Shown: one piece after another, positions 42,111 through 63,708 of the stretch
How the letters are laid out: every line of letters begins with the position of its first letter
How positions within the stretch are numbered: position 1 is the first letter of the stretch
DNA from: Polyangiaceae bacterium
GTDB taxonomy: Bacteria > Myxococcota_A > Polyangia > Polyangiales > Polyangiaceae
Assembly: GCA_050287085.1 (NCBI GenBank)
Contig: JBNKBE010000018.1
Location: 67,864-131,863 of the forward strand
Length of the DNA: 64,000 nucleotides
Direction: 5' to 3'
Notes under the pieces: model-generated
Told to the model about the DNA's origin: nothing
Database searches by the model: none
What the model saw: only the letters and a program-made list of their open reading frames with translations
Made by a program: the position numbers and the translations under genes

Positions 42111-43361
42111 CTAGCAGTCCTGGTCCATACTCGAAGCTGCGCCCGCCGCTTTGGCCATCAGTTCATCACGTACGGCCTGCGTCAGGCCCGCCCAGGTCGC
42201 ACGAGGCGCCTCGCTATCGATCACCACGTAGTGCCCCTCTTCCTGGACGATCACCGACTGGCTGAGCAGGAAGTTCAGCGCCTCGGCCAGCTCCGCTTCG
42301 GTCACACCAGTCACTTCCTCTAGCCAGGCTGCGCCGAGGGTGGGCCCAACCAATGTCAAGGCCGCCATCACCTTCTGCGTGGCAGTCGCAGCCGACCGGC
42401 TGCAAAGACGCGCAAGCTCGATATGACACAGCCTGAGTGCATGAAGCAGCTGCTCAGCCCCACTCCAGCGGTCCTCGGGTTCGGCCTGAAGCAGACGCTC
42501 GATCACTTCGTCCACACAAGGCGGCAAGTTCACGAGGGCACTCAATCGAGGGTATCTGCCGCCCTGGAGCATAGCCAGGTAGGACGGATGTTCCCCAAAG
42601 GGGAGCTCCCCCCGAAGCATCTCGTACAACACCATCCCCACCGCCCAAAGGTCGGTGCGTCCATCTTGCTGCGCCAACGCCCACTGCTCGGGTGCCATGT
42701 ACAAGGGCGTCCCTACGATCACGGATTCTGGGCCCGGAAGCTCAGCGTCCACCGCGACATGATAGCTGCCGACTCCGAAGTCCAGCAGCTGCAAACGACC
42801 GTCTGGAGCCACCGAGATGTTGCTCGGCTTGACATCTAGATGGACAATTCCTCGCTGGTGCGCGTGCCGCAGCGCCTCGCTCAACTGAATCGCAAGGCGG
42901 ATGGCGAGCAGTGGAGGCAGAGCCCCCTCGGAGAGCCGCTCCTGAAGGGTCGTGGTTGCGGCACAATTCATCAACAAGCAGGGCAACTCGCCCACCGATT
43001 CCACCCCCAACGCCCGCACTATGCTGGGATGCTCCATCCGCGACAGAGTCCGCGCCTCCTGACAGAGAACCGCCCTTGCCTCCTCGGGAGTACCGGAACA
43101 CAGAATTTTTCCCGCAATGTCTCGCTCGAGCACGCGGTCGCGCACCAGAAATACGGTGCCCGCCCCGCCCTGTCCAAGGCGCGGCCCCAGCTCGTAGCGA
43201 TGCTCCGGACCAAAAACGACTCCCGGCTCCGGCACGCGGACAGTAGCGCCACCCATCACCGGACGGTGCCCCGAGCGGGCCTTGGGCGCCGCTTGGCTTC
43301 GGGCACGCTCGGCCCCTGAGCCTAGGGAAGGCCAAAGCGACTTTTGCGTGTGATCGTTCAT
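42111..43361 (-). CDS. Ser/Thr protein kinase
   Basis: LGQGGAG, HLDVKPSN, LLDFG, GTPLYMAPEQ; SD GAGGAG before ATG 43361. Confidence 0.93.
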   Translation of the reverse strand: MNDHTQKSLWPSLGSGAERARSQAAPKARSGHRPVMGGATVRVPEPGVVFGPEHRYELGPRLGQGGAGTVFLVRDRVLERDIAGKILCSGTPEEARAVLCQEARTLSRMEHPSIVRALGVESVGELPCLLMNCAATTTLQERLSEGALPPLLAIRLAIQLSEALRHAHQRGIVHLDVKPSNISVAPDGRLQLLDFGVGSYHVAVDAELPGPESVIVGTPLYMAPEQWALAQQDGRTDLWAVGMVLYEMLRGELPFGEHPSYLAMLQGGRYPRLSALVNLPPCVDEVIERLLQAEPEDRWSGAEQLLHALRLCHIELARLCSRSAATATQKVMAALTLVGPTLGAAWLEEVTGVTEAELAEALNFLLSQSVIVQEEGHYVVIDSEAPRATWAGLTQAVRDELMAKAAGAASSMDQDC

Positions 43362-43519
43362 GTTCAAGCTCCTCGAACGTAGAAGTACCTGGCGCCGCAC
43401 GATTTGGCGATGACAGCCAATGACAGCGTCACTTCTAGCGGTGGCGATGGGCATTGCCGCGGCCGTGCTTGCCTAGCGCCAGGCGCGACCTGTAAGCTGC
43501 GCCCCTGCCCGTAGAAGCC

Positions 43520-44431
43520 ATGGCCATACTCGCTCAACAGGCCGGCGGCCGGCGCGTGCTGCTGGGAGCCGAAACCACCGTCGGACGCTCTAGCACGTGC
43601 GTGCTGCGGGTGCGTGCGCCCCACGTCTCGAGCGTCCACGCCAGCCTGCGTTGGACGGGTTCGGCTTGGTTTGTCATCGATCTCGGGAGCCGAAACGGGA
43701 CCTGGGTCGATGGGCAACGTCTGGAGGAGGGCGAGCGCAAAGCGATCTCCGCCGGTGCTCGCCTGGCCTTCGGGCGAGTGGACGAGACCTGGGTACTCGC
43801 TGACGCCGGACCGCCCGTCCTGGTTCTTCAGCCCCACGATGAAGGAGAGCCCCTTCCGCTCAGCAGTGGGCTCGTAGCCCTGCCCAACAGTGAATCACCG
43901 CGCGCCACCGTCTTCCTGCAGAGCGACGGAAGCGTACTGCTCGAATCAGAAGACGGCCAACGGGAACTCCGACATGAGGATGAATTCGAGGTAGCAGGAC
44001 GCAGATACACCGCCCTGCTACCTCAGCAACCCTCGCAGACAACAAGTGTCGTGGAGGCTGTGTGCCTGGTGGCTGACCTCCGGCTCAGTTTCAAAGTCTC
44101 TCAGAACGAGGAGCACGTCGAGCTGAACGCTGCCCTCAACGGGGTAGAGCAGCCATTGAAAACGCGCGTTCACCACTATCTCCTGGTTGTACTGGCTCGA
44201 CAACGTCTGGAAGATCGCGATCAGGGCGTCGGAGCGGACGACGAAGGTTGGGTTGAGCAAGGCGATCTATGTGACCGTTTGCAAGTCGATCTGCAGCGCC
44301 TCAACACGGATATCTATCGTATCCGAAAGCAATTTGCCGAGTTATCCCTCATCGATCCCACCCACATCATCGAGCGCCGCTTCGACTCGAAAGAGGTGCG
44401 AATCGGCACCGGTCACCTTCGACTGTCATAG
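43520..44431 (+). CDS. FHA-domain protein with a possible C-terminal DNA-binding helical domain
   Basis: VGRS, VSSVHA and DLGSRNGTWVDG FHA motifs; C-terminal LNTDIYRIRKQF. Confidence 0.88.
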   Translation: MAILAQQAGGRRVLLGAETTVGRSSTCVLRVRAPHVSSVHASLRWTGSAWFVIDLGSRNGTWVDGQRLEEGERKAISAGARLAFGRVDETWVLADAGPPVLVLQPHDEGEPLPLSSGLVALPNSESPRATVFLQSDGSVLLESEDGQRELRHEDEFEVAGRRYTALLPQQPSQTTSVVEAVCLVADLRLSFKVSQNEEHVELNAALNGVEQPLKTRVHHYLLVVLARQRLEDRDQGVGADDEGWVEQGDLCDRLQVDLQRLNTDIYRIRKQFAELSLIDPTHIIERRFDSKEVRIGTGHLRLS

Positions 44432-47740: not shown

Positions 47741-48403
47741 GAAGCCGGCTGCAGCTTTGTGTGCGCAGGACTTAGACCCCGTGTTGAGCAGCATCGCTGC
47801 TGCCGGAGCTGTCCCGGTTCAATGCATTTCGCTGCTCCGTCAGCCGCGAAGCGGTCGGTAGGAGCATGTGGTAGTCTGCGCCTCAGACTCGCCAGGGTCG
47901 CCCGGTGGTGGCCTTCGCCTCCCAAGTCACCAGGCCCAGCTCAGCGCTCCCCGCGAGGTCCCTGAGCGAATGCTTGCCACTGGCAATGGGCCGCCGATGG
48001 CCTGGACCGAGGGTTACCCCCCGTTCATCCGGCGCCGAGCGCATCTGCCCGTGTTCCACCGACGCGCCCCAGATCAACCGGACCAATACGTCCCTACAGG
48101 GTCGAGGGCGCGCGTCGCAGTCGTGCATCTCCGGTGCCCATCGCGCGGTCGCTCACGGCTTCTATTCCGCGAGGGGCGTCGCATCGCTCTCCTCCCAGTC
48201 CCAGCGACATCCGCTCACAACAGACACGGGCGACGCTGACCAAAGACCACCTGGAGCCGGGCTAGAGCGCGGGGCAGGCGGCGAGGACTTTGCGACCGGC
48301 CAGCGCGTTGATAGCTGTGCCCGCCCCCGAAACCACAGCCGTCCCCGCGGCGTAGTTGGGGCGCGCGCTCACGTTCGAGCCGCGCAGGGAGAGAACGGAC
48401 AAT

Positions 48404-49609
48404 ATGCATAGACCATCAAGCACGTGGCGCCTTTCGCTGATCCTCGCGGCAAGCGCGCTGACCCTGGCAGCTTGTAACCAGGACAAGGACGATCCAAGCG
48501 TCGCCGCAGGGGGCAGCGACGCCGCGAGCGACGATGACGCCGCGGGGGGTAGCGACGCCGCGAGCGACGATGACGCCGCAGGGGGTAGCGACGCCGCGAG
48601 CGACGATGACGCCGCAGGGGGCAGCGACTCCGCGAGCGACGATGACGCCGCAGGGGGCAGCGACTCCGCGAGCGACGATGACGCTGGCGCGGCACCGATG
48701 ATGCCGGCGACCGCCGAGCCTTCGAAAGCCGCCGCAAGGGTGCTCGAAGATATTGCAGACTACTCCAGTTGGAGCAAGTTCTACGAAAACCCCGAGATCA
48801 TGGAGTCAGCGGGGCACGCGCCCGGCGGCACTCCCCTTTTCGTACTCACCTACCGCAACGACATCGTGGCTCAAGCCGAAGTCGCTGGCACTCTTCCCCT
48901 TCCCGACGGCAGTCTCATCGTGAAGGAGAATTACCCTGCGGCGGACGCGGCAATGCCGGCAGCTCTCACCGTAATGGCCAAGGTCGATAATAGTTGGTTC
49001 TGGCTACAATCCACGCCAGACGGCAAGATCATGCTGGATCCGGAGGGCAATCCGCGTGAGGGAGATGTCCCGGGTTGCATTGGCTGCCACTCGGACAATG
49101 AGAGCAACGATTTCGTCTTCTTGCACGACTTTTCCGAACCAGCCCCAGAGGGTACCGTTCCCCCCTCGGAAGATACCAGGTCCGTACTAGATTCGATCGA
49201 AGGCTACGGCGAATGGTCCACATTCTCAGAAAACTCTGAACTAATGGAGTCCTCCGGCCACGCTCCCGGCGGCAATGCACTGTTCGTACTCACCTATCGC
49301 AACAGCGTTGTGGAACAGGCGGAAAAGGACGGCACCTTGCCACTCCCCGACGGCAGCCTTCTCGTCAAAGAAAACTATCCCTCGGCGGATGCTGAGTCGC
49401 CAGCGGCTCTGACCATCATGGCGAAGCGCGAAGGCGAGTGGTACTGGGCTCAAACGACTCCCGAGGGGCGGGTCCTTAGCGATCCAGAAGGCAATCCGGT
49501 GGAAGGCACGGACGTCGCCATGTGTAAGAACTGTCACATGATGGTCGAGGACAACGACTTCGTCTTTCTGCACGACTTCTCCCAGCCGCTTGACTCGAGC
49601 GCAAACTAG
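48404..49609 (+). CDS. Lipoprotein with two tandem cytochrome P460-family domains
   Basis: Lipobox LAA-C; two copies of LPDGSL(I/L)VKENY...MAK...W(F/Y)W...CxxCH (CIGCH, CKNCH)...NDFVF. Confidence 0.88.
   Translation: MHRPSSTWRLSLILAASALTLAACNQDKDDPSVAAGGSDAASDDDAAGGSDAASDDDAAGGSDAASDDDAAGGSDSASDDDAAGGSDSASDDDAGAAPMMPATAEPSKAAARVLEDIADYSSWSKFYENPEIMESAGHAPGGTPLFVLTYRNDIVAQAEVAGTLPLPDGSLIVKENYPAADAAMPAALTVMAKVDNSWFWLQSTPDGKIMLDPEGNPREGDVPGCIGCHSDNESNDFVFLHDFSEPAPEGTVPPSEDTRSVLDSIEGYGEWSTFSENSELMESSGHAPGGNALFVLTYRNSVVEQAEKDGTLPLPDGSLLVKENYPSADAESPAALTIMAKREGEWYWAQTTPEGRVLSDPEGNPVEGTDVAMCKNCHMMVEDNDFVFLHDFSQPLDSSAN
48503..48682. repeat. 5 x 36-bp in-frame tandem repeat encoding AAGGSD(A/S)ASDDD
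   Basis: Near-identical contiguous units gccgcagggggcagcgacgccgcgagcgacgatgac, no spacers. Confidence 0.95.
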
Positions 49610-49721: not shown

Positions 49722-52700
49722 TCACACTAAGCGAGCGCCGTGCGCAAGCGTAGCGATAGCCCCTCTCAGCCTCTCAAAACGGGCCGGCTCGAGCTCTACC
49801 TCTAGCAATGCAGAGTGCAGCGCTTCCGGTAGCCAACATTGAAGCGGTGCCAGCAGTCGTCCTGCCAACCAGGCTGCCTGTCTTGTATCGTCGGCGTCGA
49901 TCTTGTCGCGTTCAGCCAACGCGACAAGCCAAGGCATTGCCGCTGTCCACGAAAAAGGATAACGGCTACTGGCCTCATCCCATACGGCAAATGACTCGCG
50001 CGCAAGCTCCGCCGCTTGACCTAGCTGTCCGTCTCGCAATGCAGCCCAAGCCAAATTGGCGATCGCCGCCCCGACGTAGTCGACGTGTTGGTGTTCCTCA
50101 GCCTGAGAGCGGAGCTCAGAACTCAAGCGCCGGCAGCGCTGCAACTGGCCCATGCGCCGCAAACTGATGCACAGATAGTTCTTTGCCCGAAGCTGAAGTG
50201 TCACATCAGAAACAGCAACGCCGACAGCCAACGCCTGTTCAAATCCAGCACAGGCGTCGGCCACCTTGTCCTCCTGGTCGGAAAACAACCGAGCCATGTT
50301 CATCAAGAAACCAGTCATGCCGACGCCCTGACGGTCGCGCGCCTGCTGGAACACACTCATGGCCCGTTCCAGATCCCGTTCGACGTCCTCATTGGCTCGA
50401 TAACACAACAATCTCAATCGTGCGAAGGCACGATGACCTAGAAACTGTCCGAGCTGCTGCAACGTACCAACGCTCTCTGCGAGCGGCTCAACGAGTGCAG
50501 CCAGCTCGAGCAACTCCTCCACTTGACCCGAGAAGTAGTAGCTCAACATCTGAGTCAACCGTATCTGAAGCCAAACCGGAGCGGCCGGCGCCCGTGCATT
50601 TGGGGGGGCATGCCCCACGTGCCGCAAGGCCGAGGCTAGCCATGCACGGGCTGCATCGGGCTCGGACATGACAGTCTGGGCCAGCTTGCACTCCAGACGG
50701 GCTGCGTCGAGCTCGTCGAAGCTGAGCGCTAGCGCACGCGAGTAGGCTTCGATCGCAGTGCGCTCCCGTTGCAGCATCTGACACACGTCGCCTAGAGTCT
50801 CGTTGATGCGCAACTGCTCCGGCTTCGTCGCTCCGCCTGAGTCGGCAACTAGGGATGCAGCGAGCGAAAGCAGGCGAGCTGCCTCACGAAAACGCAGCTC
50901 CGAAATCGCCAGGCGCGCCCCTCGCTCCAAGGCGACAACACTCTCGGATACGCGATCAAGTGCTAGAAGATGACGTCCATGTGCTTCGAACTGCGCTGCA
51001 GTCGGGGACTGGAGAGCACCCAGATAGGAGGCTGCAAGTCCGTGAAAAACAGCGCGCGCATCCGAGTCCACCCGCGACATGAGTCGCTCTCGCAACGCTG
51101 GATACACGAAGCGCAGGTGGTCGTCGGGGGCGTGTGCCAGGACACCTGCGGTCAGAAGATCCGAAACGGCCCCCTGATACTCGCCCACACCCAATCCAGA
51201 AACGTGTTCGGCCAGTGCAGACTCAAAGGACTCACCGATGATACAAGCGGCCTGCAACAGCTTTTCAGCCGACGGAGACAATCCTGGCAGTCGACGTCCA
51301 ACCAGTTCCAGCAAAAGCTCCGGCGCCGTTACCACGCCGTCTAGCGCCGACAAGCCAGAATGCAGCATCCGCCAGGCGCGCTGCTCGGCAAAGACGAGCA
51401 CCCCCCCAGCAATCGCCGAACGCATCCACTCTCCCACAAGCCGCGGGTTCCCTCCCGCCCGTGCATCAAGGAACTCCGAAAGCTCGCCGGGCAAAGAATC
51501 GACGCCCAACATGGCACGCGCCATCGCGTGAACGCGGTTTGCGTCCAGTGGCCCCAGATTCAAACTGGGCGAGACGGCGGGTTCACACTGCGAGAGCAGT
51601 AGCAACATGTTGTGGTTGGCGGCCTCTGCCGCCAGGCGGGACACGAGCTCCTGGCACAATTCCCCCGCCGCGTCAGCATCGTCAACCAACACCACGAGCG
51701 CGCGCTGCCCGGATTGAGCCATCACCGCGCGAGCGATGGCGGCCACCAACTGCCGGCGCGCCGAGGGCAACTCGGGCCCCGCTTGAGCTGCACCACGCAG
51801 TCCGGACAGCTGCGCCCTCAGCGCATCGGTAGACAGGGACGCATCGGTCGCAAGGACGTCAAGCTGCCAAAACAGGTCTTCCAAAGCGGTGGAGTCGTCC
51901 CCGGAGCGCAGCCCGACAACGTTCAGTCCAATGCCGCGCGCCAGCGTCGCCGCCTCATTTAGCAAGCGCGTCTTGCCGCAACCGCGTTCGCCGCAAACAG
52001 TTAATGTACTCCCGTCCCCTTTGCGAGCTCGATGACACCCTCGCACAACAGCTTGGAGAGCACCCCCGCGCCCAACAAAAGGCGACCGAAATAGACCCCG
52101 CGGGCTCCTGGCTGGAGCGGAGCGGTCAATGTCGCCAAGCTGATGCAGAACGGCAAGCACCTCCTCAGCGCTGCCATAGCGATCTCGCGGGTCCTTGGTG
52201 AGCAAGCGCTCCACCAGTGAACACAACACCTGGGGAACGTCAGGAGCCACCTGTGCAAGGGGTGTCAGCGGCTGCTCCACATGCGCTAGACGCATGGCTT
52301 CGCGGCTGAGCCGACCGAACGGATGTTTACCCGCAATCCACTCGTACATCAGGCAGCCAAGCGCGTAGAGATCTGCGCGCAAGTCCGCATGTCCATGGGT
52401 TAACTGCTCGGGCGCCATATAGGCGACGCTGCCCAAGTGGCTGGGTCGGAGCTCCAACTGCTCATGCCCCGGCGTCACGGGTCCGGCCAGACCAAGGTCA
52501 ACGAGGACAGGCTGCTCAACACTGGTAAGAAATACGTTGTCGGGCTTCAGATCGCCGTGCCGCAAGCCAAGGTGGTGAAGGTGAGCTAGAGCTGACGCCA
52601 GCCCGCCGAAGACTCGAACGGTCTTCGTCACGTCGAATTCTGCAAGCTGGCGAAGCCACGGGATTCCTGCTCCGGCGCGTACAGGCCGTGGACTAGAATC

Positions 52701-53141
52701 CGGAGCCGACTTCGTTCCAGACTCAGCAGGCGCCTCTTCCCGCGCGTCACACTCTACCGCCGCACCGGTCTGGGTTGCTTCGGTCTCCGTTTCCGCGCGT
52801 GCGGGCCAGCCACGGGCGCGCTGACGCAACGCGTCGTACAACGTGGGCCCCTGCAGAAGGTCCATCGCATACCAGGGAAATTGTCCTTCGCGCCCGAACT
52901 CCACCAGACCTACGATGCCCGGATGGTGCGTCCTGGAAAGAGCCCCCACCTCTTGCTGTAGCGCGGCCACCCTCGACGATGTTGCCTGCAGCACCACCTT
53001 CAGAGCCACGACCCGACCGGAGTCTTCACGCGTCGCACGATAGACCCGACCCATGCCCCCCTGGCCCAGAAGATTGCCCAGGCGATAGGGACCGATCTGG
53101 CCGCCTAGGGATGGCTCGGAATCGCTAGCTAGCTGACCCAT
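49722..53141 (-). CDS. Ser/Thr kinase - AAA/STAND-like ATPase - TPR fusion protein
   Basis: LGQGGMG, HGDLKPDN and YMAPEQ; FVGR, Walker A GERGCGKTRL, Walker B-like VLVDD and GGNP; helical repeat C-terminus. Confidence 0.9.
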   Translation of the reverse strand: MGQLASDSEPSLGGQIGPYRLGNLLGQGGMGRVYRATREDSGRVVALKVVLQATSSRVAALQQEVGALSRTHHPGIVGLVEFGREGQFPWYAMDLLQGPTLYDALRQRARGWPARAETETEATQTGAAVECDAREEAPAESGTKSAPDSSPRPVRAGAGIPWLRQLAEFDVTKTVRVFGGLASALAHLHHLGLRHGDLKPDNVFLTSVEQPVLVDLGLAGPVTPGHEQLELRPSHLGSVAYMAPEQLTHGHADLRADLYALGCLMYEWIAGKHPFGRLSREAMRLAHVEQPLTPLAQVAPDVPQVLCSLVERLLTKDPRDRYGSAEEVLAVLHQLGDIDRSAPARSPRGLFRSPFVGRGGALQAVVRGCHRARKGDGSTLTVCGERGCGKTRLLNEAATLARGIGLNVVGLRSGDDSTALEDLFWQLDVLATDASLSTDALRAQLSGLRGAAQAGPELPSARRQLVAAIARAVMAQSGQRALVVLVDDADAAGELCQELVSRLAAEAANHNMLLLLSQCEPAVSPSLNLGPLDANRVHAMARAMLGVDSLPGELSEFLDARAGGNPRLVGEWMRSAIAGGVLVFAEQRAWRMLHSGLSALDGVVTAPELLLELVGRRLPGLSPSAEKLLQAACIIGESFESALAEHVSGLGVGEYQGAVSDLLTAGVLAHAPDDHLRFVYPALRERLMSRVDSDARAVFHGLAASYLGALQSPTAAQFEAHGRHLLALDRVSESVVALERGARLAISELRFREAARLLSLAASLVADSGGATKPEQLRINETLGDVCQMLQRERTAIEAYSRALALSFDELDAARLECKLAQTVMSEPDAARAWLASALRHVGHAPPNARAPAAPVWLQIRLTQMLSYYFSGQVEELLELAALVEPLAESVGTLQQLGQFLGHRAFARLRLLCYRANEDVERDLERAMSVFQQARDRQGVGMTGFLMNMARLFSDQEDKVADACAGFEQALAVGVAVSDVTLQLRAKNYLCISLRRMGQLQRCRRLSSELRSQAEEHQHVDYVGAAIANLAWAALRDGQLGQAAELARESFAVWDEASSRYPFSWTAAMPWLVALAERDKIDADDTRQAAWLAGRLLAPLQCWLPEALHSALLEVELEPARFERLRGAIATLAHGARLV

Positions 53142-53838
53142 AATAGCGCTCTCCGATTCTCCGCACATAGGCAACCAGGTTGCTGTGGGTCTCGGCGCGC
53201 AAGGTCAGAGGTGTCTTCGTTTCGGGGATCAGAATGCACGCCAAGAAGCCGTATAGCGTCGCATCGAGCGACGTCGGCTCGTCCCCGAAGAAGTATTGCT
53301 TGTCCCCTAGCAGGGTGGCGAGGTGGTCGACATCGTGGCCTGCGCGTTCGTAGATCTCTTCTCGGCTGTGACGCCCCATTCCATGTCCCCGCAGGTCCGA
53401 TCTGACCTTGCGCTGCAACATCCCGCCAACCAGGCCGCGAAGCAGCGCCGGGACGCTAGCCAAGAAGACTTCTTTGCCAACGCTCCAGGAAGGTTCGTCA
53501 ATGAGACGGCTATAGGTCATACCCCAATACAGGTGTTCTTCTACCATTCGGCGCACGGCCGTAGCGAGCGCTCGTTGCTCCGCTGTTAGGCCCGAATCCG
53601 GATCACGCCGGCCACTAGCGACCCAGTAGGCGATGATGGCTTCCGAGTCAGCGATGCGTCGGCCATCGATCTCAAGGACCGGTAGTTTGCCCTTTGGCGT
53701 GCTCCTCGGGTCGGCCGCCACAACCTCGTAGGGCTGCCCCACGAAGCGAAGATAGGTGCCCACCTTGCAACAAAATGGGCTTGCACTCGGCAAACCAAAA
53801 GCAGCGGGAAACTGGTGTAGCCTGGGAAGGTCGCTCAT
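53125..53838 (-). CDS. Glutathione S-transferase family protein (metaxin/FAX-like)
   Basis: SASPFCCKV, PKGKLP, IADSEAI and YFFGDEPTSLDA motifs. Confidence 0.92.
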   Translation of the reverse strand: MSDLPRLHQFPAAFGLPSASPFCCKVGTYLRFVGQPYEVVAADPRSTPKGKLPVLEIDGRRIADSEAIIAYWVASGRRDPDSGLTAEQRALATAVRRMVEEHLYWGMTYSRLIDEPSWSVGKEVFLASVPALLRGLVGGMLQRKVRSDLRGHGMGRHSREEIYERAGHDVDHLATLLGDKQYFFGDEPTSLDATLYGFLACILIPETKTPLTLRAETHSNLVAYVRRIGERYYGSAS

Positions 53839-54050
53839 AGAAATCTGGCTCAAAACGACGTCTAGGGCACCACAGGGACTCAAAAAGGTCCAAACGAAAC
53901 TCCCACCCCCGGCCCCGCGTTCTCCCGGTCTTGCCCGTCCTTGGTAAAAAGCTCTCCAAATCGCTCGTCTCACGCTCATCGGCGTGCGCCACGATTGTGG
54001 TCCTTGGGCGACTGCCTTACTTTGAAAGTCACCTATCGGGAGGAGAGCAC

Positions 54051-55526
54051 ATGCAGGAAACGACCCCAAAGTATCAACAGAATCAACCCTCGACCGTTGG
54101 CGGCAGAGCCGGACAGTCGCCGTCCGACAGCGGGCAGGCCGTTGAGTCGCCGACCATGTATCTGCATGCGAATCTGTACGTAAAGCCTGAAAATCAAGAG
54201 GAATTCGCGACCCTTTCGCCGCTGTACGCAGAGGTAATATTCCAACGGTACGGCTACGAGCTCGTGCATGCCTCCTACCCCCAGACCGGCGTGGTAGACG
54301 TGTTTCGACACGTCTGGCGAGTGGCCCCAGACCGCGGCCTGGGTGACGTCATGATAGCCACAGCCAAAGAAGCCAAACGCGAGGTCGAACGCGAAACGCG
54401 TTTGGAAGCCGCCATTGAGCTACTAGACGCCGCCAAGAGCCGCCTCTCCGGCCAGCATGCGACTGCGTCGAAAAGCGCATTGAGCGAGTCCGAAGCCGCC
54501 GCTCTGAAGCTGCTTCGGGCCGGCACCCCAACGGAGCACAACCCCCTGCCTCCCCGCAAGGTCAGCAACAGATGCTTCAGCAGACTGACACGCGCGCTGG
54601 AGGCGATCGATACGCCCATTGCTAGAGACCTAGTCGGGCTTTGCTCACTCTACCACGACGAGTTCGACCGGCAGCAGAAGCAACACAACTCCAACAGCTG
54701 GGCGATGGCCACCGCCGAGGCTGCCGACGGCTTCACCGAGCTCGCAGGACGATTGGCACTCGCGGCCTATGAAGAGGCTACCAGTCACAACGCCACGCGC
54801 TACGAAGCCTACGCAGGAGTCGCAACGATCGCGATTGAATTGGCGCGCCGCAATCGAACGATACCAGGGGTACCCTCGCCATTTACACGCATCCAGCAAC
54901 TGATCGATCGCACCGAACAGCAGCTGACGACTGCCCTACCTTACGATCCCGTCTACTTCGGTCAACAGAGCCAGACCATCATCGTCGCGGACGCCTCGGG
55001 GGCCCAACCCGACGTTCAGCTCTGGCTCATCGAGCATAAGGAGCTCAAGGCGCAAGAGCAGTTGCAAGTTCCGAGTGAACTGCGCGACACACCACGCTGG
55101 CGCACCCTGCTGCAGCATGGCGCCACGGTGGCGACCCTGGACGAAAACTCCAAGCTCTTCAACATCGCAGGGCTGCGCTCCAAGTCCGTCTTTCAGCGCC
55201 AGCAACACGCCGTTCCAGGGGACACGCTCAAAGGTGCGCCAGACGATGAGCCGCCGACCATAAAGGACGTCTATCTACCCATGCCCTGGGGTGAGATCTA
55301 CAAGTTGGATGGCGCAGCTGTCGCCCGGATTGGGCGCAAGTTGACGGAGACCGAACACGAGCACACCAAACAGCTCATGCACGAGCTGCTCGCGGCCAAA
55401 GTGGAGCTCGCCGCCATACCGGAAGTTCGCGAGGAGGACATTGGGCAGGGCTATTATTGCTACGTCGTCAATCTCTCGAGCTATGTGCCCCCTTCGGAGG
55501 AAGCAGCAACGGCTGCAGCCGAGTAG
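54051..55526 (+). CDS. Uncharacterised YcaO/TfuA-associated protein: interrupted NIPSNAP-like domain plus two C-terminal repeats
   Basis: SD GGAGGAG before ATG 54051; 491-aa ORF co-oriented with ycaO-tfuA. Confidence 0.8.
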   Translation: MQETTPKYQQNQPSTVGGRAGQSPSDSGQAVESPTMYLHANLYVKPENQEEFATLSPLYAEVIFQRYGYELVHASYPQTGVVDVFRHVWRVAPDRGLGDVMIATAKEAKREVERETRLEAAIELLDAAKSRLSGQHATASKSALSESEAAALKLLRAGTPTEHNPLPPRKVSNRCFSRLTRALEAIDTPIARDLVGLCSLYHDEFDRQQKQHNSNSWAMATAEAADGFTELAGRLALAAYEEATSHNATRYEAYAGVATIAIELARRNRTIPGVPSPFTRIQQLIDRTEQQLTTALPYDPVYFGQQSQTIIVADASGAQPDVQLWLIEHKELKAQEQLQVPSELRDTPRWRTLLQHGATVATLDENSKLFNIAGLRSKSVFQRQQHAVPGDTLKGAPDDEPPTIKDVYLPMPWGEIYKLDGAAVARIGRKLTETEHEHTKQLMHELLAAKVELAAIPEVREEDIGQGYYCYVVNLSSYVPPSEEAATAAAE

Positions 55527-55633
55527 CGGCTACCGGGCGTCGACCGTCTCCACTGACAATGCGGCGGCGCTCCGCGGTCCTTCAAGACGGCTGAGAGCCC
55601 ACCTCACGTAGACTACGCTCAGCCCCAATACCG

Positions 55634-56860
55634 ATGCTTGACAAGGCCTTTCGCGAGGGTACTCACCGCTCATGCCATCCCGAGGCCACGTGGGCTCGGG
55701 TAGCACCGTGGCTCTCGGCGATGGGCATCACCCGGGTCGCTGACATCACCGGCCTTGACACGGTTGGAGTCCCCGTATTTGCGGTGTACCGCCCAAACTC
55801 GCGCTCGGTATCCGTTTCACAAGGCAAAGGCACGACGCTTGCGGCGGCTCGGGTCAGCGGCGTAATGGAAGCCATCGAAGGCTACCACGCCGAGACGATC
55901 GAGCGGCCGCTCTTGTACGCCAGCCATGAACAGCTGGCCCCCCGCTATGCCATCGTGGACATCGATTCGCTCCCCAAGAGCCGGGTCCGCAGCTTCCGCT
56001 CAGACGCCAAACGCCATTGGGTGACGGGCGTCGACATCAGTGCGGAAGCGGAAGTGCTCGTCCCTTACGATGTCGTCCACACGGACTTCAGCTTACCACT
56101 GCTGCCCGAAGCTGGGTGTTTCATGCTGAACTCAAACGGGCTTGCTTCCGGAAATGACCTAACGGAAGCGCTGCTGCACGGCGCGTGTGAAGTCGTTGAG
56201 CGCGACGCCAACGCGCTCTTCAGCGCGACCCCCATCGCCGCTCGAGCCCCGCGCCGCGTCGACCTCAGCACCATCGACGACCCGCAGTGCCAAGCGCTGA
56301 TCGAGCATTTTGAACAGGCCGGGCTACTGGTTGCGGTGTGGGATCTGACAACGGACATCGGACTCGCTTCTTTGCGGGCAGAGTTGGTCGACGCGAGGGC
56401 AGAACCGTTTCGTGTCCTGCCTCCGTCGAGCGGAACCGGCTGCCATCCATCCCGGACCATTGCCCTGAGCCGAGCCCTGACGGAGGCCGCCCAAGGACGG
56501 CTGACCCTCATCGCTGGCAATCGCGACGACCTCAGCCGAAAGGCATACACCGAGACGAACCAGACCGCTCTTTGCGAAGCCACCCGCCAACGAATTTTGG
56601 CAAACACTGGGAGCCGCCAGTTTAGCGCTGTTCCTCACTTCGACTCGCCGGATCTCGAAGCCGACTTTGAACACGTCCGAGACCGTCTGCGTTCCGCGGG
56701 AGCCGGCAACGTCGTTGCCGTCGACCTGACCCAAGCGCGATTCGGCATTCCGGTCGTTCGCGTCATCATCAGCGGATTGGAGGGAATTGCAGAAGCGCCG
56801 GATTACTTCCCTGGGCACCGGGCGCAAGCGCAACACAGGCGCGGTGGCTACCGTGCATAA
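55634..56860 (+). CDS. ycaO: YcaO family protein, TfuA-associated thioamide-forming type
   Basis: GITRVADITGLD, SQGKG, MEAIE, SNGLASGN, EVVERDA, RALTEAAQGRL and PVVRV motifs; no C-terminal PxPxP. Confidence 0.95.
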   Translation: MLDKAFREGTHRSCHPEATWARVAPWLSAMGITRVADITGLDTVGVPVFAVYRPNSRSVSVSQGKGTTLAAARVSGVMEAIEGYHAETIERPLLYASHEQLAPRYAIVDIDSLPKSRVRSFRSDAKRHWVTGVDISAEAEVLVPYDVVHTDFSLPLLPEAGCFMLNSNGLASGNDLTEALLHGACEVVERDANALFSATPIAARAPRRVDLSTIDDPQCQALIEHFEQAGLLVAVWDLTTDIGLASLRAELVDARAEPFRVLPPSSGTGCHPSRTIALSRALTEAAQGRLTLIAGNRDDLSRKAYTETNQTALCEATRQRILANTGSRQFSAVPHFDSPDLEADFEHVRDRLRSAGAGNVVAVDLTQARFGIPVVRVIISGLEGIAEAPDYFPGHRAQAQHRRGGYRA

Positions 56861-58007
56861 GGCCGTCCACCTCTTTGTTGGCCCCACCCTGAGAGCCCCC
56901 GTCCGCGAGCTGGGCGTGCACGTCCACGGCCCCGCAGCCCAGGGCGACATCTATCGCGTAGCCCTGCAACGCCCCTTGGCAATCGGCATCGTCGATGGCT
57001 ACTTCGAACGTCAACCCGCCGTCTGGCACAAAGAGATTCTGTTCGCGTTGTCGCAAGGAATCCTGGTTCTAGGAGCCGCTAGCATGGGCGCTTTGCGCGC
57101 GGCGGAATTGACAGCCTTCGGCATGCGCGGCGTGGGAGCCATCTACCATCGATTCGCTTCCGGAGAGCTCACGGACGACGACGAGGTAACCGTCTCACAC
57201 GCAGGAGCCGATGAAGACTACAAGGCGACGTCTCAGGCCATGGTCAACATTCGTGCGACCCTCGAAAAGGCCCGCGCAGTCTCTATCATCTCGTCCGACA
57301 CTGAGTCATTGTTGATCGACTACTTCAAGAGCCTTTGGTACCCCGATCGACATCTGGCGGTGCTACAGAGCCGCACGCCACCGCCCCAGCGAAAGCGCTT
57401 CGGCAGCCGCCTTCCGGCGCGCCCGGTGGGACCTGAGGTGGAGGCGCTGGCAAAGTGGTGGCGTCAGCCTGGACACTTCGTAGACGCCAAGCAAGAAGAT
57501 GCCATCGCGCTCCTTGAAATGCTGGCGGCGTTGCACACACAACCGATCCCTTCACTGAGCGAAGGACCGTGGACGTTCCACCGTACCGACGCGTGGGAGC
57601 AAGTACGGCTCGCGATGCTTCAGCCCGCGACCAATGCCGCCGAGCCCAACGGCCCTGCCGGAACGGAAAGCGCCAACCATTTTTCGGAAGAACGCACTCT
57701 GAAAGCGCGCTCCGAGCTCGAGTTGCGAACAGAACGTCGCGTGGCCCTCGCTACGCTTGGCAAACACCTCGGGCTGAGCCCAGACGCGTATCGAAGTCGC
57801 GTCATGCAGCGTTTCATGCACGAGCATGAACTCAACACTGAACGTGACGTCTCCACGTGGCTCTCAGAACGAAATCTGACAGGCCCTATGCTCACGCAGA
57901 GACTAGCTGAGGAAGCCCTCGCCGAATGCACTGCTGAGGTGCTGCAGGCGAGAAGCGACGACGCCCTGCAAGCAACACTAGACCTACTCCCGACCCCGAA
58001 GCTCTAG
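56853..58007 (+). CDS. tfuA: TfuA-like protein with a C-terminal helical extension
   Basis: FVGPTL, PAAQGD, IVDGYF...AVWHKEIL, GAASMGALRAAEL and DDDEV motifs; GTG overlaps the ycaO stop. Confidence 0.95.
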   Translation: MHKAVHLFVGPTLRAPVRELGVHVHGPAAQGDIYRVALQRPLAIGIVDGYFERQPAVWHKEILFALSQGILVLGAASMGALRAAELTAFGMRGVGAIYHRFASGELTDDDEVTVSHAGADEDYKATSQAMVNIRATLEKARAVSIISSDTESLLIDYFKSLWYPDRHLAVLQSRTPPPQRKRFGSRLPARPVGPEVEALAKWWRQPGHFVDAKQEDAIALLEMLAALHTQPIPSLSEGPWTFHRTDAWEQVRLAMLQPATNAAEPNGPAGTESANHFSEERTLKARSELELRTERRVALATLGKHLGLSPDAYRSRVMQRFMHEHELNTERDVSTWLSERNLTGPMLTQRLAEEALAECTAEVLQARSDDALQATLDLLPTPKL

Positions 58008-58030
58008 CCCCGCAGCGTCGGGGCTTCCTT
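58006..58030 (+). terminator. Possible intrinsic terminator closing the ycaO-tfuA unit
   Basis: Hairpin agccccg-cagcgt-cggggct followed by tcctt, directly at the tfuA stop. Confidence 0.5.
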
Positions 58031-58217
58031 GTCGATACATTCATCCCATGTCCCGATAGCCAAAGTGGTTCAAACTCGGGTCCGGCGCCCCACATGGGAA
58101 CACCCACGGCGGAAGGAAAGGCAGAAGCGTCCCCAGACGCTCAAGTCATCAAGGCGTCGCGCCGTAGAGATGGATCGATCGTGGCCAAGCTCGCCCGATC
58201 GATCCAATCTGTAGGCA

Positions 58218-60011
58218 GTGCCGACGGAAGCTGCCGCCCATCGTACGACAGGTGGGGAGAATGGGGATAGGAGCGCAGACGCATCAAGTGCAGTCCGTTC
58301 TGCCGCGCGCGTCATCACGGAATCAGCGTTCGGAAGGCGTATCCGCATCCTGCTCTGCGGCGGCCTGCGCCAGCTCGGTCTGCTCTACGTCGCTACGATG
58401 CCTCTAGCCTGCGTTAGCGGATTGGACGATCTCTACCCAGCCCCCTGCGCTGCCGGCGCCAATTGCAGCGGCCCTGACGGTGGCGTTGACGACCGCCCCC
58501 ATACTGACGACAACCGAGCGACCGACACCGGAACTCCCGAGCCGGCATCCGCGCCGCAACTACTCGCCAGTGTGCCGCCCCACAACGCGGTTGACGTGGA
58601 CGTGTCGGCCTCGCTGCTCCTTGAGTTCGACCAAGCCGTACGCCCGGGCCCTGGCCATATCACACTCCGGAGCGCCGCTCAGGCCACCGTGGAAACGCTC
58701 CCCGCAACGGACGCCCGCGTGTCCTTCGTCAACAACGCGGTTGTGGTCACCTGGAGCCAGCCGTTGTCCTATGACTCGGACTACGAAGTCCACGTGGATG
58801 AAGACGCGGTGCTCGCAAACAGCGACGAAGGGGCAGCCTGGACGCCGACCATGGCCCTGACCTTTCGCACGATCGCGCCGCCCGCTCCGGTATTGATCCA
58901 CGTACAGCCAGCGGTCGGCGCAACCGATGTGGCCCCCAATGCGAACCTCGTGCTCACATTCTCGGAGCCCATTGCGCTGGGGCCCGGTAGCCTGGAACTG
59001 TGGGGCTCCGGCAACCTTGTCGAGCGCTTCAAGTTGGGCAGTCCCACGGCTACTCTCAGCGATGCCACCTTGACGCTGAATCCGACAGAGCCACTCATGA
59101 GCGCCACAACCTATGCGCTGAAGGTGGGTAGGGACGCCATAATATGCGAACACGGCGTCGCCTTTGGTGACTCGGAAGAGGTCGAAGTACTGAGCTTCAC
59201 AACCGCAAGCGAAGCGCCTTCGCCCCTTGTGCTGAGCGCCACTGTCCCGACCGCAGGCAGCCGCGACGTCGACCTCACGTCAGAGCTCTCCTTGACGTTC
59301 GAGACAGAAATCCGAGCTGGGACCGGCACCTGGGCTCTCTACAATGCCACATCCGAAGAACTGATCGAAAGCGCGACCATCGCCGACGCCCGCGTTTCCA
59401 TCAGCGCCAATACCGCTCGATTCACGCTCACAACCTCGCTAGCGCCGAGTTCGGAGTACTACGTCACCGTAGACGCCGGCAGCTTTGAAAGTCTCGAGGG
59501 TGCGGCGTTTCTGGGGCTTTCCGGCAATTCCTTGTGGACCTTCTCCACGCGCGACAAGCTCGCCGGCGAAGGCGAATGCCCAGCGGACTCCATCGCGTCA
59601 GCCAGCGGCCGCTGCTACTTCATATCCGCCTCGCAATCGACCTGGGACGGCGCTCGCTCGCTATGCCAAGAGCGCGGCCAGGGTTGGGACTTGGCAACCC
59701 CGCGCTCGGCGCAGCAACAACAAGAACTCGAAAAGCTCATCGACACCGAGACGTGGCTTGGGGCAAGCGACCTTGACGCCGCGGGCAGTTGGAAATGGGC
59801 AACTGACAGCGCAGAGTTTTGGCGGGGCGACGCCTCCGGTTCTGCTATCGACGATCAGTATACGCGGTGGGGTCCCATGCAGCCTCAGACGGACAGCGGA
59901 AGTGGGCATTGCGTCCGCCTGGTCTACGTCGGTGAGTACGGCAGTTGGCTCTGGGCTACGTCAAACTGCGGCTTCCGGTACAGCGTGATATGCGAGGGTT
60001 CTACGCAATAG
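58218..60011 (+). CDS. Probable lipoprotein with three Big_5/SbsA-type Ig-like repeats and a C-terminal C-type lectin domain (start uncertain)
   Basis: PLA-C lipobox-like motif; three P...A.DV.....L.L.F.(E/Q) repeats; CYF...TWDGARSLC...WLGASD...W...QP...C...W...C...ICE. Confidence 0.85.
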   Translation: MPTEAAAHRTTGGENGDRSADASSAVRSAARVITESAFGRRIRILLCGGLRQLGLLYVATMPLACVSGLDDLYPAPCAAGANCSGPDGGVDDRPHTDDNRATDTGTPEPASAPQLLASVPPHNAVDVDVSASLLLEFDQAVRPGPGHITLRSAAQATVETLPATDARVSFVNNAVVVTWSQPLSYDSDYEVHVDEDAVLANSDEGAAWTPTMALTFRTIAPPAPVLIHVQPAVGATDVAPNANLVLTFSEPIALGPGSLELWGSGNLVERFKLGSPTATLSDATLTLNPTEPLMSATTYALKVGRDAIICEHGVAFGDSEEVEVLSFTTASEAPSPLVLSATVPTAGSRDVDLTSELSLTFETEIRAGTGTWALYNATSEELIESATIADARVSISANTARFTLTTSLAPSSEYYVTVDAGSFESLEGAAFLGLSGNSLWTFSTRDKLAGEGECPADSIASASGRCYFISASQSTWDGARSLCQERGQGWDLATPRSAQQQQELEKLIDTETWLGASDLDAAGSWKWATDSAEFWRGDASGSAIDDQYTRWGPMQPQTDSGSGHCVRLVYVGEYGSWLWATSNCGFRYSVICEGSTQ

Positions 60012-60921: not shown

Positions 60922-63708
60922 ATGCCCCGTCTGTGCCGCGGTGAGATACCTACTAAGCCGGTCCGCGAAAGCGCTCGAATTCGGCAGTCGGCGCTGATAC
61001 AACGCGGCGTGCGCACCTCTCCGTCCCTGGTACTCGGCTGCTTAATCCTTGGCTGCTCGATTTCCCCCCCCGGGGTGCAACCAGATCAGACGACCAACCC
61101 CAGCTCGAGACCAGACAGCGGGCTCGGCGGAAGGTCAGGCCAAGAGCCGGATGAGACCGGTGGTCAACAAACAACCGAGGGGCCTCAGTCCCCCGATTCC
61201 GGGGTGCCTAATGATGCCCCCATGACGGAATGCGAGCCAGCAGCGCTAGAACCCTGCTGGGAGGCGGAGGACGGCTCCGCGCTGGCGGAACTGCCAAGCA
61301 ATCCACCGTTGGGCAACTGCCGCCTCGGCGTGCGTACGTGCGGTAGCGACGGGCGCTTCGGAATGTGTATTGGAGCAGTCGGTCCCACCGCGCAGGATAC
61401 CTGTGAAGGGGCGGGCTCAGACGACAACTGCAACGGCATTCCGAACGAGAACTGTTCCTGTGTCGCTGGAGAGAAGCGCCCTTGTGGCAGTGATGTCGGC
61501 AACTGCCAACTGGGTGAACAGACGTGCGGTGATGAAGGCTGGGGACAATGCGAAGGGGCGGTGCCCGCTGCTGCCGTGGACGGCTGCGACGTCGAAGGGA
61601 ACGACGCCAACTGCAATGGCGTGAGCAACGAAGGTTGCGTGTGCATCGGCTCGGAATCAGAACCTTGTGGGGAATGCGGCACTCGCACCTGTCGCCCGGA
61701 GAGCGGCCAGTGGCGGGCGTGCGAGGGAGGGGAAGTCACCGAGACTTGCGGACAAGACAATAACGGTCAGGTCGTATGGCAAGGCGCCGCCGTCGGCAGT
61801 TGCCGGGAAGGCCAACGCTCTTGCCTGAGTGACGGAACGTTCAGCGCCTGCACCGGAGCGGTGGGCCCCCAATCGGCGGACGACTGCGGAATTCCAGGAA
61901 ATGACGCGGACTGCGACGGGGACCCCAACTCGGGTTGTCCGTGTGTCAGCGGCGAGAGCCGCGCTTGCGGCAGCGACGTAGGCGCCTGTTCCAAAGGCAC
62001 ACAAGCGTGCAACGCTGGAGCCTGGGGTCCTTGCGAAGGCGAAGTCGGGCCTCAAGTGCAGGATAGTTGCGCCGTACTCGGCGACGACTCGAATTGCAAT
62101 GGCACCCCCAACGAGGGCTGCCCGTGTATTGGCAACGAGACCGAGAGCTGCGGTGACTGCGGCACTCGCGCCTGCACACCGGAAGCCCGACGTTGGGGCG
62201 CGTGTGTCGGGGCAGAGCTGACGGAGGCCTGCGGCGAAGACCCTACTGGGAAATTCGTATGGCAGGGGCCTAATAAGGGCAGTTGTCGCGAAGGTCAGCG
62301 CTCGTGCCAAAGCGACGGTACTTTCAGCGCGTGCGCGGGAGCCGTGGGGCCCAAATCTACCGACGACTGCAACGTTCCGGGAAACGACGCAAACTGCGAC
62401 GGTGAACCCAATTCTGACTGCACGTGCGTCACGGGTGACAAGCGCGCTTGCGGCAGCGATGTAGGAGCCTGCTCCAAGGGCACGCAAACCTGTAGTGCTG
62501 GGGCCTGGGGTTCCTGCGAAGGCGAAGTCGGGCCTCAGGTGCAGGACAGTTGTGCCGTGCTCGGCGACGACTCGAATTGCAATGGCATCCCCAACGAGGG
62601 CTGCCCGTGCATTGGCAACGAGACCGGCGACTGCGGTGACTGCGGCACGCATACCTGCTCGCCGAGTCAGCGCTCATGGGGCAGCTGCCAACGCAAGCAA
62701 GTGATCCAGGAGTGCACCCCCGGTAGCTCGACACAGCTCCGTACTTGCTCGAGCACTGGCACGTGGAACACCACGTCGTGTAGCAACGGCTGCTACAGCG
62801 GTCAGTGCGGGGAATGCCAAGCCGGCGACACCCGCTGTACCGGAACAAATGGCAACATCCCCCAGCGCTGCGTGGACGGCTTCTGGGTTAGCGACAACCC
62901 TTGCGGCGGTGCCACCCCCACATGCCAGGCATCGACAGCAACGTGTGTATGCGCCTCCAACGCAACACGCTGCGCAAACGCAACAACACCAGAGATGTGT
63001 GTGAGCGGAACATGGAGACCACAAGCCACTTGTGGTGAACCCACGCCGACCTGTCGCGAAGGTGCTTGCGTATGCAGCGAGTCCGCGCTGCGCTGCACTC
63101 CCGCAGGCTCCGCAGCGGCGCGGCAGCAGTGTGTCAACGGCAGCTGGCAAGCAACGGCCGAGTGCACCACACCGAACCCGATATGTACAGGCAACGGCGA
63201 CTGCGGCTGCACCCCATCGGATACCTACTGCCAAGCGCCCAATACGGTCGCCCGTTGCGATAATTCAAACCAATGGGTGCTCACGAAATGCGATGGGGGC
63301 CTCAACGCCTGCGACGGGGCAGGCCAGTGTCGCCGCTCCGCTACCGTGCCTGGCTACGTAGGGTGTGGGGGCACCCTGGTCTGTGATAGCGATCAGCAAT
63401 GCTGTTTCGACGCCGTCAGTGGGGTAGGCGTGTGCCAACCCGACACACCCAACGGGACGACTTGCGCCCAAAGCGAGAACTCTTTCGAGTTCAACTGCGA
63501 CGGCCCGAACGATTGCAGCGGGGGTGAGGTCTGTTGCGACAATGCCTACCGGCGACGGCTCTCGTTCTGCACGACGGATTGCTCCGGCACGGGCACTTCC
63601 GTCGTCTGCGACCCCGAGCAGGGCCTCCCATCCAATCCTGCCTGCCCCGCTGGCACGACGTGTCAGGCCACAACGGGCTCCGCCCCGGTGATGTGGCGGT
63701 GTAAGTAG
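60922..63708 (+). CDS. Large Cys-rich repeat lipoprotein (surface protein)
   Basis: LILG-C lipobox; many DxNCNGxxNEGC motifs; long internal repeats. Confidence 0.88.
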   Translation: MPRLCRGEIPTKPVRESARIRQSALIQRGVRTSPSLVLGCLILGCSISPPGVQPDQTTNPSSRPDSGLGGRSGQEPDETGGQQTTEGPQSPDSGVPNDAPMTECEPAALEPCWEAEDGSALAELPSNPPLGNCRLGVRTCGSDGRFGMCIGAVGPTAQDTCEGAGSDDNCNGIPNENCSCVAGEKRPCGSDVGNCQLGEQTCGDEGWGQCEGAVPAAAVDGCDVEGNDANCNGVSNEGCVCIGSESEPCGECGTRTCRPESGQWRACEGGEVTETCGQDNNGQVVWQGAAVGSCREGQRSCLSDGTFSACTGAVGPQSADDCGIPGNDADCDGDPNSGCPCVSGESRACGSDVGACSKGTQACNAGAWGPCEGEVGPQVQDSCAVLGDDSNCNGTPNEGCPCIGNETESCGDCGTRACTPEARRWGACVGAELTEACGEDPTGKFVWQGPNKGSCREGQRSCQSDGTFSACAGAVGPKSTDDCNVPGNDANCDGEPNSDCTCVTGDKRACGSDVGACSKGTQTCSAGAWGSCEGEVGPQVQDSCAVLGDDSNCNGIPNEGCPCIGNETGDCGDCGTHTCSPSQRSWGSCQRKQVIQECTPGSSTQLRTCSSTGTWNTTSCSNGCYSGQCGECQAGDTRCTGTNGNIPQRCVDGFWVSDNPCGGATPTCQASTATCVCASNATRCANATTPEMCVSGTWRPQATCGEPTPTCREGACVCSESALRCTPAGSAAARQQCVNGSWQATAECTTPNPICTGNGDCGCTPSDTYCQAPNTVARCDNSNQWVLTKCDGGLNACDGAGQCRRSATVPGYVGCGGTLVCDSDQQCCFDAVSGVGVCQPDTPNGTTCAQSENSFEFNCDGPNDCSGGEVCCDNAYRRRLSFCTTDCSGTGTSVVCDPEQGLPSNPACPAGTTCQATTGSAPVMWRCK
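61240..62690 (+). repeat. Three ~160-codon internal repeat units (boundaries approximate)
   Basis: gcttgcggcagcga occurs at 61963 and 62446 (period 483 bp = 161 aa); units 2 and 3 are highly similar and unit 1 is more diverged. Confidence 0.85.

Follow-up and report, generated by a model that had tools for sequence, protein, structure and literature searches.

In a 64,000-nucleotide stretch of DNA from a Polyangiaceae bacterium (assembly GCA_050287085.1, contig JBNKBE010000018.1; the whole stretch is called the window below), a gene for a protein of 491 amino acids (aa), P0001, lies directly upstream of a ycaO gene (product P0002) and a tfuA gene (product P0003). We found that the C-terminal part of P0001 holds two copies of a ~72-aa module, and that within the family Polyangiaceae the link between this module and ycaO-tfuA is near-exclusive. 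As the module occurs in the family almost only beside ycaO-tfuA, it is likely their dedicated target. That YcaO acts on the module in some way is highly probable. Our favoured explanation goes further and is held tentatively, at somewhat less than an even chance: the second copy, module B, would be the dedicated substrate of the adjacent YcaO-TfuA pair, and the backbone thioamide would be retained in the folded protein. The chemistry would be known; new, judging from sequence comparison, would be the candidate substrate domain, which has no name, and the dedicated kinase circuit in a conserved system.

The original prediction for this locus had described a three-gene unit consisting of a 491-aa gene of unknown kind, a 107-bp gap, and ycaO overlapping tfuA. 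Coordinates and Pfam matches confirmed this layout, with the gap at 55527–55633 and an overlap of 8 nt. A GGAGG Shine-Dalgarno-like site precedes the ATG of the P0001 open reading frame (ORF), and P0001, ycaO and tfuA are real genes that belong together. The unit itself proved larger, as it includes a kinase gene at 49722–53174, and the 491-aa gene is recognisable as a barrel with two module copies, one of them precursor-like. A hairpin had also been reported after tfuA; it exists but is weak (z −1.77, a fold matched by 10 of 200 shuffles), and a terminator scan makes no call there. The features of the unit are as follows.

54051–55526, + strand: P0001 ORF, 491 aa, split NIPSNAP/ABM-type barrel fused to module A and module B
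54153–54362, + strand: N-terminal half of the barrel (dimeric alpha/beta-barrel, ferredoxin-like), residues 35–104, from the AlphaFold2 model and VIA-align
54363–54875, + strand: helical insert in the barrel, residues 105–275, with a four-helix bundle at 169–277
54876–54959, + strand: barrel-completing C-terminal helix and strand, residues 276–303, from the model and VIA-align
54960–55184, + strand: module A, residues 304–378, a module copy without the long loop and without Cys
55260–55484, + strand: module B, residues 404–478, Cys-bearing module and candidate YcaO-TfuA substrate
55443–55472, + strand: Gly-rich loop and C-x-x-x-N (G465, G467, C470, N474), candidate modification site
55634–56860, + strand: ycaO (P0002), 408 aa, PF02624 at 263 bits (cut-off 25.7)
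56853–58007, + strand: tfuA (P0003), 384 aa from GTG, with a C-terminal extension, PF07812 at 151.6 bits (cut-off 30)
58006–58025, + strand: weak hairpin after tfuA, 7-bp stem and 6-nt loop, possible terminator

Linkage of the module to ycaO-tfuA

Co-occurrence of upstream-gene homologues with ycaO, which the original prediction had set as its own test, was found across the P0001 family: ycaO directly follows the family gene in 19 of 21 loci, and the other two stop at contig edges. These 21 loci include duplicates (L013 equals L007, and L010, L024 and L029 look like one sequence). A tfuA gene is present in all 12 family loci whose contig reaches that far. The closest homologue of P0001, P0004, directly precedes a ycaO whose product is 57% identical to P0002.

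Across the family Polyangiaceae, tfuA was found in 105 of 383 genomes. We analyzed 91 tfuA loci, which were hand-picked by position from those listed and blind to the upstream gene, and the module was recognized by profile in 54 of them, with four more weak cases. It was present in 52 of the 68 loci with a YcaO at least 40% identical to P0002, and in 2 of the 23 below 40%. When the main module profile was run over all 383 whole genomes, with 15 candidates scored per genome, it gave 61 matches in 54 genomes, of which 56 lie at most 4.5 kb from tfuA and three lie directly before ycaO at a contig end; of the remaining two, one is near a contig end and one is partial and spurious. Among the 28 matches on contigs outside profile building, 24 were near tfuA and two more stood before ycaO. 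A reversed-sequence control for the iterated profile yielded one match (E 3.8), and comparison of three subtype module profiles with the main profile linked them at P 6e-8 to 2e-6. One of 400 other genomes sampled across the phylum had a match to the profile, so the range of the module looks mostly confined to this family.

A quick YcaO tree of 98 rows was built without bootstrap, with support from the Shimodaira–Hasegawa-like approximate likelihood ratio test (SH-aLRT). All 70 module-linked YcaOs fell in one branch of 75 rows (SH-aLRT 96), and the module subtypes track YcaO sub-branches, with the barrel-fusion loci corresponding to a 15-row sub-branch that includes P0002. The idea that the upstream gene merely shares a promoter with ycaO-tfuA is hardly credible after these results and is largely refuted: related genomes do co-inherit gene order, but the link outlasts changes of orientation, fusion partner and copy number, and 59 of the 61 module matches adjoin ycaO or tfuA.

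Architecture of P0001 and forms of the module

Starting from the first three full-length homologues, a profile search expanded the P0001 family to 45 proteins including P0001 (285–525 aa). An AlphaFold2 model of P0001 made from 44 family sequences had a mean predicted local distance difference test score (pLDDT) of 77.8 and replaced an earlier model (4 sequences, pLDDT 55). Compared with known structures by VIA-align, the predicted barrel scored Z 10.6 to 3gz7 and 10.2 to the NIPSNAP structures 5ixu and 5k9f, superposing ~93 residues with a root-mean-square deviation of 2.5–2.7 and an identity of 6–16%. In the model, residues 35–104 and 276–303 form a ferredoxin-like barrel of NIPSNAP/ABM type. 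The fold is shared with NIPSNAP/ABM proteins (5ixu, 5k9f, 3gz7), but the barrel of P0001 is split by the 170-residue insert and fused to two modules. PF07978 (NIPSNAP) had no match on P0001 and matched four of 44 family members, at best with E 0.012.

The ~170-residue helical insert is confined within the family to P0001 and P0004–P0006, which are 24–29% identical to one another there, and the barrel-completing segment 276–303 of P0001 is 68–75% identical to that of P0004–P0006. Scattered Cys and His residues occur in the insert (54363–54875) of all four members, with C-x-x-C in P0005 and P0006, and a metal or sensor role of the insert is possible.

Modules A and B are alike in strand and helix order in the P0001 model. 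Their profile comparison inside the fusion family is weak (P 0.019); against the wider module B alignment, profile-profile comparison of module A gives P 1e-6, and kinship is clear. In none of 29 sequences does module A have a Cys at the equivalent position. In module B, G465 and C470 are invariant across the 44 family sequences, and loop residues 464–466 lie between two strands with a pLDDT below 50, the Gly-rich loop being predicted as flexible. P0001 is evidently a fusion of parts encoded separately elsewhere, because locus L074 has the barrel, an NmrA-type protein, module A and module B as four genes.

Beside ycaO, iterated profiles detected the module as a free ORF of 74–140 aa, as tandem copies, or in a fusion. 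Its fusion partner is a barrel, an S53 peptidase or Ig-like domains, and in one subtype, with divergent transcription, an HEXXH Zn-peptidase-like domain. The module sits in a big gene in the window and is free elsewhere, and the precursor-like part is therefore not missing but fused. A single-sequence search with residues 290–491 returned no shorter homologue among 423 candidates; the profile search returned nine proteins of 80–149 aa among 399. The S53 peptidase is fused to the module in L008 and lies two genes away in L031, and modules of the divergent subtype have HEXXH Zn-peptidase-like domains in fusion or next to them. This subtype includes a second locus of the source genome (6.2 Mb, 160 contigs):

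C38, L001 7486–15329, tfuA and ycaO on the − strand: divergent 568–580-aa gene with modules and an HEXXH Zn-peptidase-like domain, a kinase-AAA gene and an FHA gene

Free barrel proteins came out of the neighbour clustering as well, together with an NmrA-type cluster of 14 members and, in two loci, a B12 radical-SAM gene.

Among 82 distinct module tails, which are mutually related and of which 16 were picked by a Cys-containing motif, the −4 position is Cys in 76, Ser in four and Thr in two; the Asn is kept in 78 and Gly at −7 in 55. Loop length varies widely. The module matched no named family: for 37 members there was no Pfam match better than E 0.13 and no NCBIfam match, and its profile gave short weak matches to PDB sequences (best E 0.005 over 29 positions). 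A ThiS profile likewise matched none of the 37 modules, and P0001 does not end in Gly-Gly. The ESM Atlas returned no entry for P0001, and for a free module it gave clusters without a name, at low recognition; Foldseek on both P0001 models gave no match at E 0.001 or better, and a wide VIA structure search covered mainly P0001 residues 31–305 and barely the module. The predicted element order of the module, as seen within the P0001 model, differs from that of the recognition element (PqqD-like) of RiPPs (peptides made by the ribosome and modified after translation), whose topology we take to be three strands followed by three helices.

Several module loci have individual features. P0050–P0057 and L104 (6344–6583) form a free 80–87-aa subfamily in which Ser replaces the conserved Cys. 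L064 and L127 show two module genes ~2 kb apart, and in L064 the first copy is followed by a 30-residue ycaO fragment, which suggests a partial duplication. In L052 (5130–5334) the module is split over two frames behind a radical-SAM gene fragment and is possibly decaying, or the split is an assembly error. L091 has a gene with a gp5 C-terminal trimerisation domain (9520–10443) directly after tfuA.

The original prediction had seen no precursor, protease, transporter, tailoring enzyme or ThiS in or next to the unit. This holds in the window: no convincing free precursor was seen by eye among 74 ORFs of at least 20 aa in 53950–58300, and Pfam showed no protease, transporter or ThiS among 12 scanned neighbours. 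It does not extend to related loci, which have S53 and HEXXH Zn peptidases, NmrA-type reductases and B12 radical-SAM genes. A short precursor hidden in the 107-bp gap was also considered and was rejected after ORF inspection.

These related loci raise the possibility of a fused-precursor pathway, in which the module would be a folded leader or scaffold, its loop would be thioamidated, and a peptidase would free the core; the barrel, an NmrA-type reductase or a radical-SAM enzyme would tailor it. The free modules are of precursor size, the loop is highly variable in length, and the S53 peptidases (L008, L031), the Zn peptidases, the NmrA-type cluster and the two radical-SAM genes could supply the further steps. 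According to parts of PMC6511847, thiovarsolin needs only a precursor, YcaO and TfuA, so the missing protease and transporter here are compatible with a peptide product. We nevertheless regard this pathway as fairly unlikely. The conserved motif is internal to the predicted fold and often N-terminal in proteins of 250–740 aa, no transporter family recurs among the clustered neighbours, and no peptidase lies near the module copy of the window (Pfam, 12 neighbours). The comparison with thiovarsolins and thioviridamide-type thioamitides, as far as sections of PMC6511847 and PMC8120280 describe them, is likewise mixed. Many module loci resemble them in a precursor-sized gene directly before ycaO-tfuA and a variable core-like loop, and some in accessory redox enzymes and peptidases. 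In contrast to those RiPPs, the candidate here is a predicted folded domain with an internal motif, often in large fusions and with no terminal core, and conserved kinase-AAA-TPR and FHA genes accompany the module. If the product were a released peptide, these loci would represent a class of fused precursors, in a family with a reputation for natural products. Mining for short precursor ORFs would overlook the fused module forms.

The proposed modification and its alternatives

The enzymes of the window are related to those that thioamidate a protein. The nearest solved relative of P0002 is the McrA-thioamidating YcaO 6pe3 (E 3e-38), and that of P0003 is 6xp8 (E 1e-25). Residues S75, E79, E82, S172, E186, E189, R190, E284, Q287 and R289 of YcaO, which we take to be ATP-binding, are (nearly) invariant in 76 sequences. 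In TfuA, S77 and K213 are kept in all 66 aligned sequences and are presumably the pair required to hydrolyse thiocarboxylated ThiS. Such hydrolysis is the role assigned to TfuA in passages of PMC8939145 and PMC13063428, and TfuA appears only in a cluster table in the available portion of PMC7321100. Among the NCBIfam models, P0002 scored 239 bits on the thioamide-type TIGR03266 (cut-off 365), 127.3 bits on the azoline-type TIGR03604 (cut-off 219.25) and 30 bits on NF040716 (cut-off 700), and P0003 scored 161.5 bits on NF033432 (cut-off 235.2), all of them under the cut-offs.

In the explanation that we favour, YcaO-TfuA, with ATP and sulfide, would put a backbone thioamide in or next to the Gly-rich loop G465–C470, a chemistry suggested by the enzyme families. 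The sulfur would come from a ThiS-type carrier whose gene lies at another place in the genome, which has three ThiS-family genes, all on contigs other than that of the window. The modified module is predicted to remain within the folded protein, and module B may pair with module A, which has no Cys. What the modification is for is the least secure part: the loop, once modified, would most likely switch or equip its partner domain (barrel, reductase or peptidase). The original prediction had taken the large protein as substrate or substrate carrier; the candidate substrate narrows from the whole protein to the ~72-aa module.

Folded proteins as YcaO substrates have precedents in McrA and uL16, the two thioamidated proteins described so far according to sections of PMC13063428. 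The McrA thioglycine system (TIGR03266, NF033432; 6pe3/6peu, 6xp8) likewise has adjacent stand-alone YcaO and TfuA, which are the nearest solved relatives, and its site, like the candidate site of the P0001 locus, is in a protein stretch that contains Gly. In contrast to that system, the pair of the window falls below both NCBIfam cut-offs, is bacterial and is accompanied by a kinase and an FHA regulator, and the operon itself encodes the candidate substrate, a mobile domain of ~72 aa. E. coli YcaO, as parts of PMC13063428 present it, similarly modifies a folded protein, uL16, without a short precursor gene nearby, but it works without TfuA on a housekeeping protein encoded elsewhere.

The module changes faster than its enzymes. 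In 31 close pairs the median identity was 53% for the module, 70% for YcaO and 65% for TfuA, and between L043 and L063 the module gene and barrel are 41% identical, compared with 89% for YcaO, 82% for TfuA, 80% for the kinase and 93% for the FHA protein. At the DNA level (L043 4887–6882 and L063 5080–6999, with ycaO turned to +), the flanks are 80–96% identical and the similarity breaks over the barrel gene. Barrel and module in these two loci look as if they had been exchanged as a cassette within a conserved frame, like variable cargo.

Loci without the module also bear on its role. The YcaO of L050 belongs to the module branch, yet no module was found in ~23 kb upstream. Its surroundings hold a Cys/Ser-rich precursor-like ORF, a second YcaO-like ORF (identified by eye), nitroreductases, a split dehydratase and an ABC transporter. 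With an ordinary precursor in place of the module, the enzymes seem not to need the module, which favours a substrate over a helper. L050 and L129 (G752:C1, ~12.62–12.64 Mb) correspond to a thiopeptide-like cluster with ycaO-tfuA. Outside the module branch, small ORFs that we take by eye to be Nif11-type-like precursors lie beside the YcaOs of L101 (6273–6647) and L109 (before ycaO).

A helper role would make the module either a sulfur relay, with a persulfide on the conserved Cys replacing ThiS, or an adaptor bringing another protein to YcaO. It would explain the Cys in 76 of 82 tails and the lack of ThiS in the locus, and a partner subunit would also be expected to follow YcaO subtype as the module does. 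We consider such a role unlikely. Six of the 82 tails have Ser or Thr instead. The faster divergence of the module, L050, the kept S77 and K213 of TfuA, and the ThiS genes elsewhere in the genome all favour a substrate.

Side-chain chemistry was a further candidate, with the Cys, Ser or Thr of the module acting as a nucleophile towards a thiazoline or oxazoline, or towards a backbone cut, and no thioamide being formed. All 82 tails have Cys, Ser or Thr at −4, and YcaOs form azolines and some cleave peptides, as parts of PMC13063428 report. This remains improbable: ycaO is followed by an intact tfuA on every contig long enough to show it, P0002 scores far higher on TIGR03266 than on TIGR03604, and neither an E1-like partner nor a flavin dehydrogenase recurs among the scanned neighbours. 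Module A has Ser or Thr at the equivalent position in 9 of 29 sequences, and a small residue there may therefore be partly structural.

Several observations weigh against module B as a thioamidated substrate and against the linkage behind it. The best-conserved residues, Cys and Asn, sit in a predicted beta-strand outside the loop; the loop Gly is kept in 55 of 82 tails and largely lacking in two subtypes, which means that not every module can have a Gly thioamide. A released peptide would be equally consistent with the peptidases that other loci have next to the module or in fusion with it. L050 is a single case, and the branch YcaOs of L085, L089 and L090, with upstream DNA intact, show neither module nor precursor. 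The module profile was built from tfuA neighbours, the three subtype profiles were seeded by eye from loci that were then counted, the genomes are related so that counts are not independent, part of the tails was chosen by motif, and with 15 candidates per genome distant free copies of the module could be missed. When YcaO (alignment of 76 rows, ATP and Mg included) was modelled in complex with P0001 residues 300–482, the prediction scored 0.00; it was run without controls and counts neither way.

If module B is indeed modified and stays in place, the 491-aa protein would be a new kind of protein with sulfur in its backbone, and for the main branch of tfuA loci in the family a candidate substrate, a residue window (G465–N474) and a regulator can now be named. 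A broader proposal, which we consider rather doubtful, is a kinase-gated myxobacterial system in which the ~72-aa domain would serve as a portable tag that accepts a thioamide: YcaO-TfuA would place sulfur in its loop, and the tag, exchanged between proteins as a cassette, would switch the barrels, S53 peptidases or Zn peptidases to which it is fused. After McrA and uL16 this would be the third case of protein thioamidation in nature and, to our knowledge, the first that is modular and regulatory rather than constitutive. Our literature search found no description of this module or of a kinase-linked YcaO-TfuA system; the main text of a global survey (PMC8120280) names no kinase-linked myxobacterial family, and its precursor tables may list free modules of myxobacterial origin.

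Kinase, FHA gene and other genes of the window

The remaining genes that concern the system are as follows.

49722–53174, − strand: Ser/Thr kinase-AAA(STAND-like)-TPR gene, 1150 aa, conserved system member
53125–53838, − strand: glutathione S-transferase-like gene between the kinase gene and P0001, start uncertain
43520–44431, + strand: FHA protein gene (Pfam) with a probable C-terminal winged-helix region
42111–43454, − strand: small Ser/Thr kinase gene beside the FHA gene, with matches to family loci

Kinases from related loci align with the kinase of the window over ~1100 aa, at up to 375 bits, compared with at most 112 bits for paralogues in its own genome. A divergent kinase gene is present in 14 of the 21 P0001-family loci, the remaining seven having less than 500 bp upstream, and the kinase occurs at 44 of 54 module loci compared with 11 of 37 other tfuA loci. 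These comparisons indicate that the kinase-AAA-TPR gene is dedicated to the YcaO-TfuA system. Where a family locus has enough upstream DNA, no more than a few hundred bases separate the start of the kinase gene from the fusion gene. The glutathione S-transferase-like gene was rejected as a conserved part of the system because related loci have the kinase close to the fusion gene, and it is probably a local insertion.

The FHA protein of the window, whose winged-helix label we presume by eye, is 39% identical over 304 aa to the product of the gene after tfuA in L043, and neighbour clustering gave a 25-member FHA-containing cluster, mostly directly after tfuA. The genome has two further close paralogues of it, one beside the second ycaO. 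This gene is likely a displaced regulator of the YcaO-TfuA system, through which the kinase would control the operon. The small kinase beside it has its best matches in family loci L007 and L012 (174–177 bits, compared with 128 bits for paralogues in the genome), and both genes match genes after tfuA in L007 or near tfuA in L012; the small kinase is possibly another displaced member.

Two further ORFs of the window were recorded. A Cys-rich repeat protein of 928 aa, encoded at 60922–63708, had no match in Pfam or NCBIfam, and at 48356–49609 a lipoprotein-like ORF has two cytochrome P460 domains and an Asp/Ala/Gly/Ser repeat near its N-terminus.

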